Below, piece by piece: positions 10,915 to 20,723 of a stretch of DNA of 24,000 nucleotides. The position numbers were made by a program, and so were the translations under genes. The notes below the pieces were generated by a model. That model did not search any database, was not told the origin of the DNA, and worked only from the letters and a program-made list of their open reading frames with translations. Positions within the stretch are counted from its first letter, which is position 1. Each line of letters opens with the position of its first letter. Location: positions 1-24,000 of the forward strand of contig DATNNE010000047.1 of NCBI GenBank assembly GCA_035601995.1. The letters run 5' to 3'. This stretch comes from Terriglobales bacterium (lineage in GTDB: Bacteria > Acidobacteriota > Terriglobia > Terriglobales > Acidobacteriaceae).

Positions 10915-12039
10915 ATGGCAATCGCTGGACAATTTACGATCGAAGAAACGAAGCGGGCGATTCCGACCACCATGCGAGCAGCGGTTTATCGCGGTGTGAA
11001 CGATGTTCGTGTGGAAACCGTTCCGGTGCCGAAGATCGGGGCGGGAGAGCTGCTGGTCCGGGTGCACACTTGCGGAATCTGCGGAACCGATCTCAAGAAA
11101 ATCTCCAGCGGTTCACATTCGGCGCCACGCATCTTCGGTCACGAAACCTCGGGCGTGGTAGCGGCTGTAGGGAGTGAGGTCAAGCAGTTTAAGCCGGGCG
11201 ATCGAGTGGTGGTGTTCCATCACATTCCGTGCGGCGAATGCTACTACTGCCGCCACAAGACTTTTGCTCAGTGCGAGACCTACAAGAAAGTCGGGTGTAC
11301 TGCGGGCTTCGAACCTTCAGGTGGCGGATTCGCCGAGTATGTTCGGGTGATGGATTGGATCGTTAATCACGGCACGGTTCGCATCCCGGATGGAGTCTCG
11401 TTTGAGCAAGCGTGCTTCGTCGAACCCGTCAATACCTGCATGAAGGGGATTGAGACGCTGCAACTTGTGCCCGGCGAGAGTGTTCTAGTAATTGGACAAG
11501 GGCCGATCGGCATCATGTTGAGTGCGTTGGCCAAACGTTCTGGGGCTGCAGTAGTAACTTCCGATTTGTATCCCCAGAGGCTTACAATATCTAAAACGTA
11601 CGGTTTAACGAATGTGATTGATGCTTCCCACGTCGACCCGGTGAAAACGGTGCGGGAGCAGACAGAGGGCCGGGGCGCCGACGCAGCCATTGTTGCGGTC
11701 GGTGGGAACGGCCTGATTCGGACTGCCATGGATGCGGTGCGTCCGGGGGGCAGGGTCTTGCTGTTCGCGCAGACGGTTCGCGGGGAGGCTACGATTGATC
11801 CGGCCGCGATCTGCGTGGACGAGAAGAGATTGTTGGGTTCGTATAGCGCGTCGGTTGAACTGCAGGAAGATTCGGTGCGGTTTGTGATGAGCCGCGAGAT
11901 GAACTTGGAAGGTTTGATCAGTCACCGCTTCTCTTTATCGGACGGTGTGGAAGCCCTCAAACTGGCGGCGAGTCCGCAACCGGATTCGATGAAGATTGTG
12001 ATTCAAGCGGGCAGTTCGTGGGAAGGAAATAGAAATTGA
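10915..12039 (+). CDS. Zn-dependent medium-chain dehydrogenase/reductase, polyol/threonine-dehydrogenase-like (374 aa)
   Basis: Catalytic-Zn context CGICGTDLKK and GHETSGVV. Structural-Zn lobe CGECYYCRHKTFAQC (C-x2-C-x2-C-x7-C). Dinucleotide fold VIGQGPIG. Alternative start at M20 (MRAAVYRG, nt 10972). Confidence 0.85.
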   Translation: MAIAGQFTIEETKRAIPTTMRAAVYRGVNDVRVETVPVPKIGAGELLVRVHTCGICGTDLKKISSGSHSAPRIFGHETSGVVAAVGSEVKQFKPGDRVVVFHHIPCGECYYCRHKTFAQCETYKKVGCTAGFEPSGGGFAEYVRVMDWIVNHGTVRIPDGVSFEQACFVEPVNTCMKGIETLQLVPGESVLVIGQGPIGIMLSALAKRSGAAVVTSDLYPQRLTISKTYGLTNVIDASHVDPVKTVREQTEGRGADAAIVAVGGNGLIRTAMDAVRPGGRVLLFAQTVRGEATIDPAAICVDEKRLLGSYSASVELQEDSVRFVMSREMNLEGLISHRFSLSDGVEALKLAASPQPDSMKIVIQAGSSWEGNRN

Positions 12040-13112: not shown

Positions 13113-14102
13113 ATGCCGGGGCCTGCATTGACGAAACTGATCATGTCATCGATTGCCAGCGACTCCCGGACTGCGGCTATTTCCTCAAGGCAGGAGGGGT
13201 GGGGCAGTCTTCCGCTCGAGTACGCCATTCCCGAGAAAGCCCCCACCCAAGCCGAGGCAGAGGAGTACTGCCGTCGTCTGGCCCGTTCGCACTACGAGAA
13301 TTTCTCGGTTGCCAGCTGGTTTCTTCCTGAAAAAGTGCGGCAGGATTTTTTCAACGTCTACGCTTATTGCCGCATCTCGGATGATCTAGGTGACGAAGTC
13401 GGCGATGCGAATGCTTCTTTGCGATTACTGGATCAGTGGGAGGCTGAGCTCGATGCGTGCTACGCAGGGAGTCCGCGGCATCCTGTGTTCGTAGCCTTGG
13501 CGGAAACTGTGCGCAAGTGCGGGATCCCGAAACAAACGTTTGTCGATTTGCTCACTGCGTTTCGCCAGGATCAAAGAGTCTCACGCTATTCCACGTTCGA
13601 GGATGTTCTCAGCTATTGCCGGTATTCTGCGAATCCCGTCGGACATCTCGTGCTGTATGTGTGCGGCTACCGCGACGCGGAGCGGCAGGCGCTTTCCGAT
13701 TTCACTTGCACTGCTTTGCAGTTGGCGAATTTCTGGCAGGACGTCAGCCCGGACTATGCCAATGGGCGAATCTATCTTCCCCTCGAAGACCTGCGCCGTT
13801 TTCGAGTCAGTGAAGATGACTTCGCGGCGCAACGCAATACATCCGCTTTTTGCGACATGATGCGATTCGAAGTGGAGCGCGCCCGCGATTGGTTCTGCTG
13901 GGGCCTGCCGCTGATCGAGCAGGTGGATCGTGACTTGGCCGTCGACATTGAATTGTTCAGCCGGGGTGGTCAGGAGATTCTGAACGCCATCGAAGCCCAG
14001 GGATACAACGTGCTGGGCAGGCGTCCGGCAATTTCAAAATCACGCAAACTGGCGCTGGTAGCGGGTGTGGCCTGGGGGAAATTGTGGGGAAGGCGGACAT
14101 GA
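13113..14102 (+). CDS. hpnC: Hydroxysqualene synthase (squalene synthase HpnC)
   Basis: Squalene/phytoene-synthase fold with Asp-rich motifs YCRISDDLGDE and FWQDVSPDYANGRIYLPLED. It is followed by the paralogue hpnD and by hpnE. Confidence 0.85.
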   Translation: MPGPALTKLIMSSIASDSRTAAISSRQEGWGSLPLEYAIPEKAPTQAEAEEYCRRLARSHYENFSVASWFLPEKVRQDFFNVYAYCRISDDLGDEVGDANASLRLLDQWEAELDACYAGSPRHPVFVALAETVRKCGIPKQTFVDLLTAFRQDQRVSRYSTFEDVLSYCRYSANPVGHLVLYVCGYRDAERQALSDFTCTALQLANFWQDVSPDYANGRIYLPLEDLRRFRVSEDDFAAQRNTSAFCDMMRFEVERARDWFCWGLPLIEQVDRDLAVDIELFSRGGQEILNAIEAQGYNVLGRRPAISKSRKLALVAGVAWGKLWGRRT

Positions 14103-16977: not shown

Positions 16978-18000
16978 TCAGCGTCGGGTCATTTCTGGCG
17001 GAACTCCCACCCTATCGCCGAAGACCTCCCGCGCTTGATCGTAGGCTCCAAGCGGCGCGATCACTCTCCCAATGAATTCTGAGATGTGCTTCCCCTGGAA
17101 TTCATCGATTACTTGAGCCTCGTCAATTCTGCGGAAGCTCCCCTTATCGTCCACAATTTCCCGCGACCAGAATCTGTGATCGAGACCCAGCAGAAACTCC
17201 TTTTCGACCGAAGTTGCCATTCGCGTGTTTGTCTTGCCCTCAACTGTTGCCCCTGGAATAATTCTCCACTCCCGCTGTCGATAGTAGGAAAGGAGCTTGT
17301 CGTTGAATTGATCGTCCGTCGGATAGAACAGGTTTTGAGCTGCGTAGATAGCGCCTCTCATCAGATCAAATGGGGCTGTCTTATAGTTTAGATAATCCAA
17401 TATGCCGCGGACGATGCTCGCCTTTACCTCGAAGCGTTGAACAATCGCCTTATCCTCATTGTTGTTCTGGAGATGCAGTACGTAATTTGGATCGACGTGA
17501 GTGGCCTCTGGGTTCGTCCTGCGAGCAAGCTCTAGGGCGGACCGCGGATCGGAAAGTTTGGACAACTGGTCCAGCAGATCCAACGTATGTCGAGCATTCT
17601 CGAACATCCACACGATGACCGGACCAACTGAGCTGAGTAGCCGATCGCCCTTCACCATTTGCGGCACGTATATGACGGGGAGTATTCCGAACTGCCGCAA
17701 CACCTGGATTGGGAACTCCAACGAGAACGGACCAAATGATTTCGCATGCCCAGACAATTCGGATTGCGAGAGCTCTGTGAAGCAGATTCTCGTCTGTCTA
17801 TTGCGGATTACCTTTGTCGTGCTGTCTACTTGGGGAATCCCCCATTCCACAACCTCTGGAGCGAGGACCATGCCGATATTCTTAACTCCCTTTAGAATTT
17901 CTAGCCCTTTTGTGATGACAAGCTCTGGCGTCTCCGACGGCAGCTTTCGCGGAAAGCTATGGTAGAAGCTTCGTTCAAATCCGTCGATCGCATTTTCCAT
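16978..18000 (-). CDS. AbiGi-like (abortive-infection family, Pfam PF10899-like) protein, 340 aa
   Basis: Pattern-level match to AbiGi as remembered: FYHSF.., LEILKGVKNIGMVL, RICFTELSQSELSGHAKSFGPFSLEF..GILPVIYVP (compare ..CFCDIPLS....H...YG.YGI.F......G.NPV.Y) and the later YYRQREWRIIPG (E.EWR motif). AAGGAG lies directly upstream of the ATG. The gene is visibly more A/T-rich than its neighbours. Confidence 0.55.
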   Translation of the reverse strand: MENAIDGFERSFYHSFPRKLPSETPELVITKGLEILKGVKNIGMVLAPEVVEWGIPQVDSTTKVIRNRQTRICFTELSQSELSGHAKSFGPFSLEFPIQVLRQFGILPVIYVPQMVKGDRLLSSVGPVIVWMFENARHTLDLLDQLSKLSDPRSALELARRTNPEATHVDPNYVLHLQNNNEDKAIVQRFEVKASIVRGILDYLNYKTAPFDLMRGAIYAAQNLFYPTDDQFNDKLLSYYRQREWRIIPGATVEGKTNTRMATSVEKEFLLGLDHRFWSREIVDDKGSFRRIDEAQVIDEFQGKHISEFIGRVIAPLGAYDQAREVFGDRVGVPPEMTRR

Positions 18001-18198: not shown

Positions 18199-18579
18199 TT
18201 ACGCGGCCAGCAGAACCACGCCGCCTGCCACCAGCAGTGCGGCCATCCAGCGGCGGTGATCGACTCGTTCGTGCAGAAACAGCTTGGCCGCAATCGCGTT
18301 GGTTATAAAAGTAAGAGAGGCCGAGGCCGGTGCGATCAGGCTGACATCGCCCCAGGATAGTCCGAACAACAAACTGTAAAAGGCCGTAGTCATGGCGAGA
18401 ACACCGAGCAGGAAGTTTGGATTCCGCAGGACTCGTCCCAACACCGTCCAGAGACCGCTCTGCCGCCAGAGCTCGCCCACGTCTCCCACCTGCTTCATGG
18501 CGCGGGAGAGCAGAACGTCGCCGGTGGTCGAAGCCAGCACGATGGCGGCAATCGAACTCCATGCGTAGGCTTGCTTCAT
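18199..18579 (-). CDS. Half-size (4-TM) EamA/DMT-superfamily membrane protein B (126 aa)
   Basis: MKQAYAWSSIAAIVLASTTGDVLLSRAMKQVG... has four hydrophobic helices and ends ..HERVDHRRWMAALLVAGGVVLLAA, the EamA C-terminal pattern. ATG 18579 has GAAGGA 6 nt upstream. The track start TTG 18600 lies inside the tandem repeat. Confidence 0.75.
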   Translation of the reverse strand: MKQAYAWSSIAAIVLASTTGDVLLSRAMKQVGDVGELWRQSGLWTVLGRVLRNPNFLLGVLAMTTAFYSLLFGLSWGDVSLIAPASASLTFITNAIAAKLFLHERVDHRRWMAALLVAGGVVLLAA

Positions 18580-18589
18580 TGCTTGTCCT

Positions 18590-18631
18590 TCATGGTTCAA
18601 GCCTCATGGTTCAAGCCTCATGGTTCGGGCC
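18590..18631 (-). repeat. 14-bp tandem repeat x3 at the junction of the two EamA genes
   Basis: Plus strand: tcatggttcaagcc tcatggttcaagcc tcatggttcgggcc. Each minus-strand unit (GAACCATGAGGCTT) carries an overlapping ATGA start/stop and a GAGG. Confidence 0.95.
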
Positions 18632-19058
18632 TCGCTGAAGCGGGTTCGTAGGCTGCTTCCTGGGCTTTGGCTTTTGCTGGATGGTGGGTCAGTGCTGGAC
18701 CCTGCGTCACGAATCCCACGCCGGCCGAGATGAGAAGAACTCCAATCCAGCGCGACGTTGTCACGGTCTCGTGCAGGAAAAACTTCGCAATCAGGGTAAG
18801 CAAAACGTAACCCAGTGAGGTCGCGGGAAGAACGTAGGTGAGGTCAGCCCAGGAAAGGGCGATCATGTAGGACGCGAAGAATCCCAGCAAGAGCAAAATG
18901 CCCAGAGCAACCGAGGGATTCAGCACGGCCAGGATTAAATCAGAAAAATGGCTCAGGGAAATGCTGCCCACTTGCTTCATGCCATGGGAGAGCAGCGAAT
19001 CGCCGATGGACGCACAGAGCGTCACGCCAGCGAGCACCAGATATTTTCGAAAGGTCAC
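18618..19058 (-). CDS. Half-size (4-TM) EamA/DMT-superfamily membrane protein A (146 aa)
   Basis: GTG start. The sequence (M)TFRKYLVLAGVTLCASIGDSLLSHGMKQVG... is a paralogue of protein B (shared ..GD.LLS..MKQVG.. and ..FLHE.V...RW....L...G...). It has a hydrophilic Ala/Pro-rich C-terminal tail. Confidence 0.75.
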   Translation of the reverse strand: MTFRKYLVLAGVTLCASIGDSLLSHGMKQVGSISLSHFSDLILAVLNPSVALGILLLLGFFASYMIALSWADLTYVLPATSLGYVLLTLIAKFFLHETVTTSRWIGVLLISAGVGFVTQGPALTHHPAKAKAQEAAYEPASARPEP

Positions 19059-19186
19059 ACTTTTGTTACCCGGCAGGTGGGAACAAGATTCCGATTTGGG
19101 GACTCGGATGCAGTAATGGCCGTAACCTCAGGGGCTAAAGCCCTTTTTCAAGAAACATTTTTCCGACGGGCTGGAGCCGCGCCCTC

Positions 19187-19216
19187 TCAAAGCTGACCAC
19201 ATTCAAAGCTAACCAC
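19187..19216. repeat. Imperfect direct repeat in the hpnJ-EamA spacer
   Basis: TCAAAGCTGACCAC (19187-19200) and TCAAAGCTAACCAC (19203-19216) differ by one mismatch and are 2 nt apart. A short GGGC-taaa-GCCC hairpin with T5 lies nearby (about 19132-19148). Confidence 0.6.
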
Positions 19217-19244
19217 CTCATTAGCGAGTTCCTGACAAAGCCCA

Positions 19245-20723
19245 CTAGGCCTTTGCCGGAGCAACCGCAGCGGCAGAATCGTCCTTCTCGCGTTTGTCCT
19301 TCACCCATTTGTGGCGCATGGCACGGACTTTCAGGAAAGTCTTTGCTTCTTTATAAAGGCGCTTGCGGTCCACGTTGTTGAATGCCGCTTTTCGCAGGAT
19401 GCGGAACACCGCCTTGGGCCGGAAATAATATTCGTCGTAAAAACGGTGCACAGACTCGAGAATCTCTTCGGCTGGCAGGCCGGGATACTGAATGTGAGCG
19501 AGTTGGTGACCGCCCTCGTCCACCATCTTGTTGTCGCCGACCATGAAGCCGTTCTTCACGGCGTAGTCATAGAGTTCGGTCCCCGGATAAGCGTGGGCAA
19601 CTGAAACTTGAATTGTCTCGACGTCCAGCTCCTTGGCGAATGCGATGGTGTTGCGAATGGTGTCGCGAGTTTCCCCGGGCAAGCCGAGGATGAAGTCGCC
19701 GTGAACTACCAATCCGAGCTTGTGACAATCCTTGGTGAACTGGCGGGCGCGCTCGATGGTCGCGCCTTTCTTGATGTTCTTCAGAATCTGCGGATCGCCA
19801 GATTCGTATCCCACGATCAGGAGTCGGCAGCCCGCGTCCTTCATCGCCTTGAGAGTCTCGTAGTCGGTCGTGACACGCGAGGTGCAAGACCATGTGAGCT
19901 TCAAAGGCTTGAGTTTGGAGCAGAGTTCGATAGTTCGCGCCTTCTGAATGTTGAAGGTGTCATCGTCGAAGAAGAACTCTCGGACATTGGGCCAATAAGT
20001 TTTTGCATTGGCCATCTCGCGGGCCACGTCGTCAGTGGAGCGCTTGCGCCAAGGGTGACCGCTCAAAGTCTGCGGCCAGAGGCAAAACGTGCACTGCGCC
20101 GGACAGCCGCGAGTGGTGTAGAGAGAAACATAAGGGTAAAGCAGGAATGGCACGTTGTATTTCGTCACATCCAAATCGCGACGATAGATTTCCGTGACAT
20201 GGGGCAGGGAGTCGAGATCCTGAATCTCCGGGCGGTCGGGGGTATGCACGACCGATCCATTCTTCCGGTACGAAATCCCTAAGATTTCTTCCAGCGGCTT
20301 GCCATGAGCGAACTCGTAAACCGTGTGGTCGAACTCCTTGCGCACCACGAAATCGATCTCAGCACAATCCTTGAGAGACCGTTCCGGCAACACGCTGACG
20401 TGCGGTCCGACAAAGGCGATCTTGATCTTGGGATTGACCTCCCGGATCTTTTTGACCAGCCGAATGTCGCCGGGGAAGCCTGGAGTACTGGTAAACAGAA
20501 CCAGAAACTCGTAACCCCGGGCAATGTTGATGGTCTCTTCCGCCGACACGTGATGCGAAGGGGCATCGAGCAGCCGAGAGCCTTCGAGCATTCCGGCAGG
20601 GTAAGCAAGCCAGACCGGGTACCAATAACTTTCAATTTCGCGAGTAGCCGGCCAACGCGAGCCGGCGCCTCCGTCGAAATTCTCGAACGACGGCGGATTC
20701 AAAAACAAGGTTTTTAATGGCAT
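19245..20723 (-). CDS. hpnJ: Hopanoid-biosynthesis-associated B12-binding radical SAM protein (HpnJ)
   Basis: The N-terminus MPLKTLFLNPPSFENFDGGAGSRWPATREIESYWYPVWLAYPAG and the cluster motif YTTRGCPAQCTFCLWPQT (CxxxCxxC) match HpnJ as remembered. 492 aa. Less likely to be the methylases HpnP or HpnR. Confidence 0.8.
   Translation of the reverse strand: MPLKTLFLNPPSFENFDGGAGSRWPATREIESYWYPVWLAYPAGMLEGSRLLDAPSHHVSAEETINIARGYEFLVLFTSTPGFPGDIRLVKKIREVNPKIKIAFVGPHVSVLPERSLKDCAEIDFVVRKEFDHTVYEFAHGKPLEEILGISYRKNGSVVHTPDRPEIQDLDSLPHVTEIYRRDLDVTKYNVPFLLYPYVSLYTTRGCPAQCTFCLWPQTLSGHPWRKRSTDDVAREMANAKTYWPNVREFFFDDDTFNIQKARTIELCSKLKPLKLTWSCTSRVTTDYETLKAMKDAGCRLLIVGYESGDPQILKNIKKGATIERARQFTKDCHKLGLVVHGDFILGLPGETRDTIRNTIAFAKELDVETIQVSVAHAYPGTELYDYAVKNGFMVGDNKMVDEGGHQLAHIQYPGLPAEEILESVHRFYDEYYFRPKAVFRILRKAAFNNVDRKRLYKEAKTFLKVRAMRHKWVKDKREKDDSAAAVAPAKA

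Follow-up and report, generated by a model that had tools for sequence, protein, structure and literature searches.

When the stop and start codons of co-directional bacterial genes overlap by 4 nt (ATGA) or 1 nt (TGATG), termination-reinitiation can couple their translation (Huber et al. 2019, PMC6728339; Huber et al. 2023, PMC10666635; 2025 review, PMC12548453). In E. coli reporters, 80-100% of reinitiation was lost with a +38 nt gap, and coupling had almost vanished at about 20 nt (PMC10666635). Reinitiation after termination, and the distance that ribosomes can travel before it, are still debated in bacteria. Here we describe a junction between two genes for half-size EamA membrane proteins, EamA-A and EamA-B, in a 24,000-nt stretch from a Terriglobales bacterium (contig DATNNE010000047.1, positions 1 to 24,000; hereafter the window). 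As in described overlap coupling, its four junctions are canonical ATGA overlaps with a Shine-Dalgarno (SD)-like motif before each, the plain overlap is dominant in relatives, and the genes are paralogous half-transporters, the heteromeric-partner type that is enriched for such overlaps. Unlike in described cases, four such overlaps follow one another here, with three five-codon open reading frames (micro-ORFs) between the EamA-A stop and the EamA-B ATG, which lie 38 nt apart. Because a 38-nt gap largely abolishes direct reinitiation in E. coli (PMC10666635), the relay is relevant at this distance. Each element is well established in itself (ATGA coupling, reinitiation assisted by an SD, and structure-enforced coupling), but searches of the literature on translational coupling turned up no account of minimal ORFs arranged as a serial relay through duplication of the junction.

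The nearest precedent is that of MIRUs (mycobacterial interspersed repetitive units), intercistronic repeats with coupled small ORFs (Supply et al. 1997, as presented in the review PMC12548453). Like MIRUs, the array of the window places repeated units in tandem between genes of an operon, every unit holds a small ORF in -4 overlap to the next, and insertion or expansion would likewise affect downstream expression minimally while copy number varies between lineages. The intercistronic 77-bp tandem repeats of senX3-regX3 each carry a short ORF that overlaps its neighbours. However, MIRU units are ~40-100 bp long, dispersed at many loci and thought to be mobile, whereas the unit of the window is 14 bp, derives from the local junction itself, occurs at this site only (24-kb window, 160 other loci) and encodes ORFs of just 5 codons. 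A second general concept is that of a short delivery ORF, or leader peptide, to which the gene downstream is coupled (PMC12548453). By analogy with these, a non-functional short ORF ending at the downstream start, together with unfolding of a closing structure, may drive downstream translation in the window. Leader-ORF coupling is exemplified by tap-repA of plasmid R1 and repY-repZ of ColIb-P9. Those ORFs are single, at the 5' end of the message and within a regulatory circuit, whereas the window has three chained ORFs between structural genes, made by duplication. Finally, stable helices at the downstream initiation region prevent de novo initiation in hyfHI, astDB and ydbH/ynbE (PMC6728339). 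Similarly, the AUG and early codons of EamA-B are predicted to pair with sequence that upstream ribosomes must cross, although here the 5' arm is made of duplicated junction units, is found in this lineage only and is a prediction. RNA-phage coat/replicase is the classical example of structure-enforced coupling.

Direct reading of the minus strand (18621-18576) leads from the EamA-A stop through two MRLEP micro-ORFs and one MKDKQ micro-ORF to the EamA-B ATG (Table 1). EamA-A ends in GAA CCA TGA, with the stop at 18620-18618, and the A at 18621 joins the TG of this stop to form the ATG of micro-ORF 1. All four junctions of the array (4/4) are consecutive, co-directional 4-nt ATGA overlaps. GAGG lies 8 nt ahead of every micro-ORF ATG, and AAGGA (18586-18590, in micro-ORF 3) lies 6 nt ahead of the EamA-B ATG. 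Tandem Repeats Finder detected the array at 18590-18626 with period 14, 100% match and score 74. The spacing ATGA-N10-ATGA occurs 3 times in the 24-kb window, every time inside the array, against 0.6 expected. Both the direct reading and Tandem Repeats Finder bore out the initial annotation, which had described the relay accurately in every detail. Since the unit contains ATGA and is 14 nt long (5 codons minus 1; 2 mod 3), each added copy is a chained 5-codon ORF. The proposal that expansion preserves the chain holds by this arithmetic: adding or removing units switches no reading frame and leaves EamA-A, EamA-B and the chain intact, and natural variants have 0, 1, 2 or 3 micro-ORFs with every chain intact.

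No copy of the 14-bp unit was found elsewhere in the 24-kb window, even with 2 mismatches, or in the 160 other loci, and a dispersed repeat or mobile element was rejected given this confinement. A search of the junction for terminator-like sites found none, with no U run after the hairpin described below, and neither a promoter nor an Rfam RNA family was found there. An intrinsic terminator or attenuator was rejected on the absence of a terminator-like site, a U tract and an Rfam match at the junction.

Table 1. Positions of the junction features and of the neighbouring genes in the window.
Feature	Position	Strand	Description
Micro-ORF 1	18604..18621	-	ATG AGG CTT GAA CCA TGA, MRLEP then stop; ATG overlaps EamA-A stop as ATGA
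Micro-ORF 2	18590..18607	-	Identical to micro-ORF 1 (MRLEP then stop); ATGA junction on each side
Micro-ORF 3	18576..18593	-	ATG AAG GAC AAG CAA TGA, MKDKQ then stop; stop overlaps EamA-B ATG
14-bp tandem repeat	18590..18626	-	2.6 copies; coding-strand unit GAACCATGAGGCTT, other register ATGAGGCTTGAACC
GAGG (SD-like)	18630..18633	-	In EamA-A tail, 8 nt before micro-ORF 1 ATG; read from sequence
Predicted mRNA hairpin	18552..18626	-	5' arm 18626-18612 (GAACCAUGAGGCUUG; EamA-A end and micro-ORF 1) predicted to pair with EamA-B codons 3-9 (18573-18554)
EamA-A	18618..19058	-	146 aa, single EamA domain membrane protein; NCBI HXM60061.1; GTG start
EamA-B	18199..18579	-	126 aa, single EamA domain membrane protein; NCBI HXM60060.1; starts MKQAYAW
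hpnJ	19245..20723	-	Hopanoid-associated B12/radical SAM enzyme; first gene of conserved hpnJ / EamA-A / EamA-B arrangement

We compared the junction across relatives. EamA-B protein scans yielded 80 genome loci and 80 metagenome loci, giving 161 loci with the window (numbered here with the prefix L), and at each locus the EamA-A stop and EamA-B start were located before the reading frames were walked. A plain NTGA overlap was scored in 120/161 loci and, on inspection, also in L036 and L065, where EamA-B is one residue longer. In total, ~122 of ~150 informative relatives thus have a single NTGA, from which the window differs by inserted 14-nt units, and this strongly supports the initial annotation's view of a duplicated stop/start junction. 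Judged from this comparison, the 4-nt NTGA overlap is the ancestral and dominant state of the family. A TGATG overlap was found in L105, and TAG directly followed by ATG in L051.

In 21 loci (16 distinct junction sequences), EamA-A ends 13-56 nt upstream of EamA-B, and an unbroken micro-ORF chain leads to the EamA-B ATG in 21/21. The chain consists of one micro-ORF in 17 loci, two in L061 and L107, and three in L145 and the window. The single micro-ORFs encode MKDAQ, MRSKR, MRGER, VREAR, MREAR, MKDTR, MRAER, MKDER, MKDEG and others. Across the 21 loci, the junctions are of the types ATGA, GTGA (L024, L145), TGATGA (L029, L121) and TAATGA (L107), and none is broken. Thus, the copy-number comparison that the initial annotation called for gave a range of 0 to 3 micro-ORFs among relatives; its further suggestion that copy number varies by slippage found support between lineages only. 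In L145, the chain lies ~60 nt upstream of the EamA-B match and reads MTLQNTKHKS, VKRKL and VKIKS, each with its stop, linked by GTGA junctions. Its 10-codon ORF amounts to 29 nt, two units plus 1 nt, as if through a +1 indel the ORF had bypassed one unit and stopped at the next. At L061 (2960-3010), the locus has its own 14-nt relay, MRLKA with its stop twice over, and the two units differ by two synonymous changes only.

The chain was broken in four loci (L015, L039, L063 and L139). In these, EamA-A is truncated early, the tblastn match ending at query residue 72-136, and they look like frameshifts or pseudogenes in sequence, not junction insertions. The other 12 loci were uninformative or different, mostly through a poor EamA-A match (31-42% identity), an early end, or a contig that ends before EamA-A; among them, L031 has a 10-nt overlap.

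In L014, L088, L007, L009, L010 and L095, the extra units are in frame and form a 5-15 aa tail of EamA-A, again ending in ATGA. The additional material in these tail loci has a 15-nt period or one added base. On comparison of the sequences, a single +1 indel can turn a micro-ORF into a protein tail or the reverse. Tail relatives end, for example, in ASARPEP(M/L)RKAR before the stop (proteins P0003 and P0006). EamA-A cluster members of 156-160 aa occur on up to 26 contigs, so the in-frame tail form is common. It is unlikely to be mere long-read indel error, since L088 is a JGI metagenome contig and not an MFD metagenome-assembled genome (MAG), MFD being taken as nanopore-based. EamA-A and EamA-B are separate in all loci, and a programmed frameshift fusing A to B was dropped, with no sign of it in the sequence or the relatives. 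The anti-SD duplex upstream of EamA-B was ~-6 kcal/mol in simple (n=110) and chain (n=16) junctions alike (Mann-Whitney p = 0.42), and the idea that the insert gives EamA-B a better SD was rejected on these equal energies.

These comparisons give good support to an origin of the array by lineage-specific, stepwise tandem duplication of the stop/start junction. In a nucleotide tree of its clade, the window groups with loci nearly all of which bear an extra unit. The distance from a GFVT motif to EamA-B is 109-110 nt in this sub-clade, 86-98 nt in simple forms and 137 nt (109 + 28) in the window. Micro-ORF 3 (ATGAAGGACAAGCA) is visibly a homologue of the lone micro-ORF found in relatives (for example ATGAAGGACGCGCA and ATGAAGGACGAGCG; peptides MKDAQ, MKDER, MKDTR and others), and thus the unit adjoining EamA-B is old and common to the sub-clade. 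In contrast, units 1 and 2 are identical and hence recent, added in the lineage of the window. The sole difference between them and the matching EamA-A tail (GAGGCCCGAACC) is CCC to CTT, which fits a duplication of the A-stop junction, then two substitutions, then a second duplication. In the protein tree, L061 is nested among relatives with simple junctions, so its relay arose independently. L145 was grouped with L061 by its similar first unit, a sequence reading; of the two, the tree covered L061 alone.

Folding predictions pointed to a consequence of the two new units. The 75-nt junction RNA has a minimum free energy of -24.8 kcal/mol, compared with -13.5 +/- 2.4 for shuffles (z = -4.78; 0/200 shuffles as stable). 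In the predicted outer pairing, GAACC AUG AGGCUUG faces CAAGCCU..CAUGG..UUC in EamA-B codons 3-9, and in the inner helix unit 2 (GCUUG) is matched to micro-ORF 3 (CAAGC) and CAU to the EamA-B AUG (18579-18577), for which the predicted probability of being paired is 0.90. The 7-nt inverted repeats AGGCTTG/CAAGCCT were confirmed by a repeat search. The predicted cost of opening the EamA-B initiation region (-15 to +15) was 8.6-11.3 kcal/mol with no extra unit, about 11.2 with one, 14.1-14.6 with two (the actual sequence) and 18.3 with three, and 9.8 kcal/mol with two units carrying CCC instead of CTT. The long-context mean unpaired probability changed little with unit number, and opening energy and local fold were the more informative measures. 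As modelled, the hairpin should make EamA-B depend on upstream translation. The initial annotation had overlooked both this strong predicted hairpin of the two new units with the EamA-B initiation region and the old, sub-clade-wide unit next to EamA-B.

Reverting bases specific to the window weakened the hairpin or left it unchanged: CTT to CCC cost 7.2 kcal/mol, reversion of EamA-B Ser9 to Ala, at a base that the window shares with none of 11 relatives, 2.4 kcal/mol, and the micro-ORF 3 reversions 0.3 to 4.2 kcal/mol. As modelled support for the hairpin, these reversions are only suggestive. The hairpin was present in 0/20 relatives (z -2.2 to +1.6), and its status as a general feature of such relays was rejected, as it is missing in L061, L145, L107 and the single-unit forms tested. 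Separately, the CC-to-TT change between the EamA-A tail and the units turns an imperfect inverted repeat with EamA-B codons 3-5 (AGGCCCG/CAAGCCT) into a perfect one (AGGCTTG/CAAGCCT; 18567-18573 against 18598-18604 and 18612-18618). This double change is what template-switch quasipalindrome correction would produce, a speculative origin.

An intact chain in the window alone proves nothing, since chaining is automatic at the birth of a 14-nt copy. The relatives are more telling. Their length changes comprise 14-nt units that extend the chain, 15-nt units read in frame and one-codon shifts of a stop (TGATGA/TAATGA), and each of these preserves the arrangement. In variants with a full-length EamA-A, the translated ORF ends on the EamA-B start throughout, despite length changes that arose several times independently, and the 4 exceptions among ~150 loci have a truncated EamA-A. 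The first unit persisted through ~10% protein divergence with the chain intact. Taken together, the comparative data argue for selection for a ribosome that terminates at the EamA-B start, not for selection on copy number. Same-species copy-number data come from one strain: over 1.4-6.4 kb, the ENA, Logan and JGI contigs match the window at 100% identity and thus represent the same strain, which makes four identical assemblies. Scans of genome and metagenome collections for relatives returned only other species, and the members listed for the 90% protein clusters were likewise other species, at 83-92% identity.

We therefore favour, with moderate confidence, stepwise junction duplication between translationally coupled half-transporter genes, in which relay and hairpin keep EamA-B tied to EamA-A. 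This explanation builds on the anatomy of the junction, its duplication origin, its recurrence, the retention in natural variants of an ORF ending at the EamA-B start, and the predicted hairpin. An older 14-nt insertion in the sub-clade created one 5-codon micro-ORF, to which the lineage of the window then added two identical units. By prediction, these new units pair with the EamA-B start region and close both its AUG and codons 3-9. Ribosomes finishing EamA-A would cover and melt the 5' arm of the hairpin, initiate anew at the ATG that overlaps the stop and read five codons up to the ATGA that follows, where they would terminate and the cycle would be repeated; translation of micro-ORFs 1 and 2 would keep the EamA-B start open. 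The last termination would take place on the EamA-B ATG, with reinitiation aided by AAGGA. In this way, four successive termination-reinitiation steps could hand the ribosome from EamA-A to the EamA-B ATG despite the 38 nt, and through unfolding and relay EamA-B synthesis would stay tied to EamA-A synthesis despite the duplication. We infer that the micro-ORFs are translated, that the relay and not de novo initiation feeds EamA-B, and that the hairpin matters in vivo. Efficiency at each relay step is probably incomplete, and coupling may be weakened as a result. The most likely net effect is that coupling is preserved, possibly in attenuated form, rather than turned into an adaptive rheostat.

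Several observations weigh against this explanation. On the sub-clade tree, Fitch counts gave 1 step for the N of NTGA (A to G, still a start codon) and 0 for TGA, with an average of only ~2 steps at neutral proxy sites. Independent indel events are few, and chain integrity at birth is automatic. EamA-B has its own SD-like AAGGA at good spacing, which makes de novo initiation possible. The hairpin is confined to a single lineage and lacks covariation support, the other relays (L061, L145 and L107) have no such structure, 57% of random single mutants destabilise it too, and its region is constantly crossed by ribosomes. In addition, ribosome recycling was reported not to be critical for coupling in E. 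coli (PMC7538156), and the coupling mechanism is debated.

In a neutral alternative, copies left by replication slippage persist only since an added 14 nt disrupts neither the chain nor either protein, EamA-B is mainly initiated de novo at its own SD, and neither micro-ORFs nor hairpin has a role. It draws on the chaining that follows automatically from the 14-nt period, the AAGGA 6 nt before the EamA-B ATG, the equal SD strength before EamA-B in simple and chain forms (p = 0.42), chain-critical bases that are not distinguishable from neutral sites in conservation, the identity of units 1 and 2, which makes them very recent, and micro-ORF peptides that are not conserved (MKDAQ, MRSKR, MRGER, MREAR and others). 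However, a neutral array sits poorly with an ORF that ends at the EamA-B start in all but four of ~150 loci, those four having a truncated EamA-A, with length changes that always preserve the chain (14-nt, 15-nt in-frame, TGATGA/TAATGA), with a first unit kept intact through ~10% protein divergence, and with a hairpin far stronger than that of shuffled sequences. We consider a purely neutral origin unlikely, while giving it serious weight.

More doubtful is a generalisation of the favoured explanation, according to which duplication of an ATGA junction in a 2-mod-3 unit would be a general, self-preserving route to an adjustable ribosome relay, a natural rheostat for heteromer stoichiometry. 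As part of it, three units would put a stop and restart in all three frames and tolerate +1/-1 indels by unit skipping (compare L145), and unit number together with pairing to the downstream start would set the strictness and efficiency of second-subunit synthesis. An adaptive rheostat or contingency locus, along the lines suggested by the initial annotation, with frequent slippage within populations setting the A:B ratio and each relay step passing on a fraction of the ribosomes, appears improbable. Copy number does differ between lineages (0 to 3 micro-ORFs), units resemble others of the same genome more closely than their orthologues in other genomes, a hint of repeated duplication or homogenisation, and the predicted opening energy of the EamA-B initiation region climbs with unit number. 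Yet the four assemblies are identical, though of one strain, 2.6 copies of a 14-bp unit are a weak slippage substrate, and a half-transporter heterodimer would be expected to need 1:1 stoichiometry, which speaks against a benefit of variable ratios.

That the micro-ORFs encode functional pentapeptides such as MRLEP is very improbable. MRL- opens the peptides of both the window (MRLEP) and L061 (MRLKA), and the two units of L061 differ by two synonymous changes only; however, two synonymous differences have an estimated chance expectation of ~6%, no peptide sequence is kept across the 16 distinct junctions, and we know of no precedent for functional five-residue peptides from such a context. 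An assembly or sequencing artefact creating a spurious short repeat can be set aside: short tandem repeats can be mis-assembled and many related MAGs come from nanopore data, but the array recurs unchanged in contigs of three further origins, namely ENA (megahit-style k141), Logan and JGI, and hence is not an assembler artefact, and analogous arrays are present in many more genomes and metagenomes, among them the JGI metagenome contigs L088, L107 and L112.

The main value of the locus lies in providing a natural allelic series for testing reinitiation. At one homologous junction in many soil acidobacteria, the gene pair offers a series of 0, 1, 2 and 3 five-codon relay steps together with in-frame fusions, and these variants are ready-made constructs for studying serial reinitiation, minimal ORF length and structure-enforced coupling. 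The pattern is comparative evidence that termination at the start codon, not mere proximity, is kept by selection. For annotation, it shows that a fully coupled arrangement can go unseen in a 38-nt 'intergenic' stretch.

Regarding the proteins themselves, HXM60061.1 and HXM60060.1 come from a Terriglobales MAG (NCBI). EamA-B scored 33.4 bits with Pfam EamA, over the cut-off of 28.2, and EamA-A 24.7, just under it. The likeness of the pair to ArnE/ArnF is architectural only (adjacent genes, one EamA domain each, ~110-150 aa), as the best ArnE score was ~22 bits against a cut-off of 92 and that of ArnF 18.9 against 99 (NCBIfam equivalog cut-offs), too low for orthology. A search for a solved structural relative of EamA-B found none. 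The EamA-B start MKQAYAW is conserved across relatives, and the N-terminus aligns from residue 1 in nearly all related loci. By analogy with the general architecture of DMT and SMR-type transporters, EamA-A and EamA-B may form a heterodimer. HpnJ scored 783.5 bits with TIGR03471 (cut-off 577.6), and a HpnJ homologue lies upstream on the same strand in 79/80 related genome loci. The hpnJ-linked half-size EamA pair comprises uncharacterised candidates for a hopanoid-related flippase or exporter.

The window as a whole is a hopanoid cluster. Its plus strand carries IspH, squalene-hopene cyclase, HpnH, HpnA, two Zn-dehydrogenases, HpnC, HpnD and HpnE, and its minus strand a TolC-like gene, HpnJ, EamA-A, EamA-B and an AbiGi-like gene. 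The last of these is a 340-aa ORF (16978-18000, minus strand) between EamA-B and hpnE with a weak Pfam match to AbiGi (abortive-infection antitoxin). A homologue was found within 3 kb downstream of EamA-B in 0/80 related genome loci, and the GC content of the region is 0.46-0.53 against ~0.55-0.60 in the flanks; the ORF has the look of an insertion that is specific to the strain within the hopanoid cluster. Between the hpnJ stop and the EamA-A start codon (GTG) lies a non-coding gap of 186 nt (19059-19244). Measured from where the HpnJ alignment ends, the EamA-B start is 666 nt away in the window, compared with a median of 493 nt in relatives, and the window seems to carry extra sequence between hpnJ and EamA-A too, beyond the 28-nt array.

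Other co-directional pairs in the window show plain short overlaps and no repeats: 4 nt between the two Zn-dehydrogenase genes (12036-12039), 1 nt for hpnD/hpnE (15058) and 19 nt for hpnC/hpnD (14084-14102). A second perfect short tandem repeat lies at 1828-1866, inside overlapping ORF calls, with 2.6 copies of a 15-bp unit (GATTCGAAAGAAGAC), 100% match and score 78.

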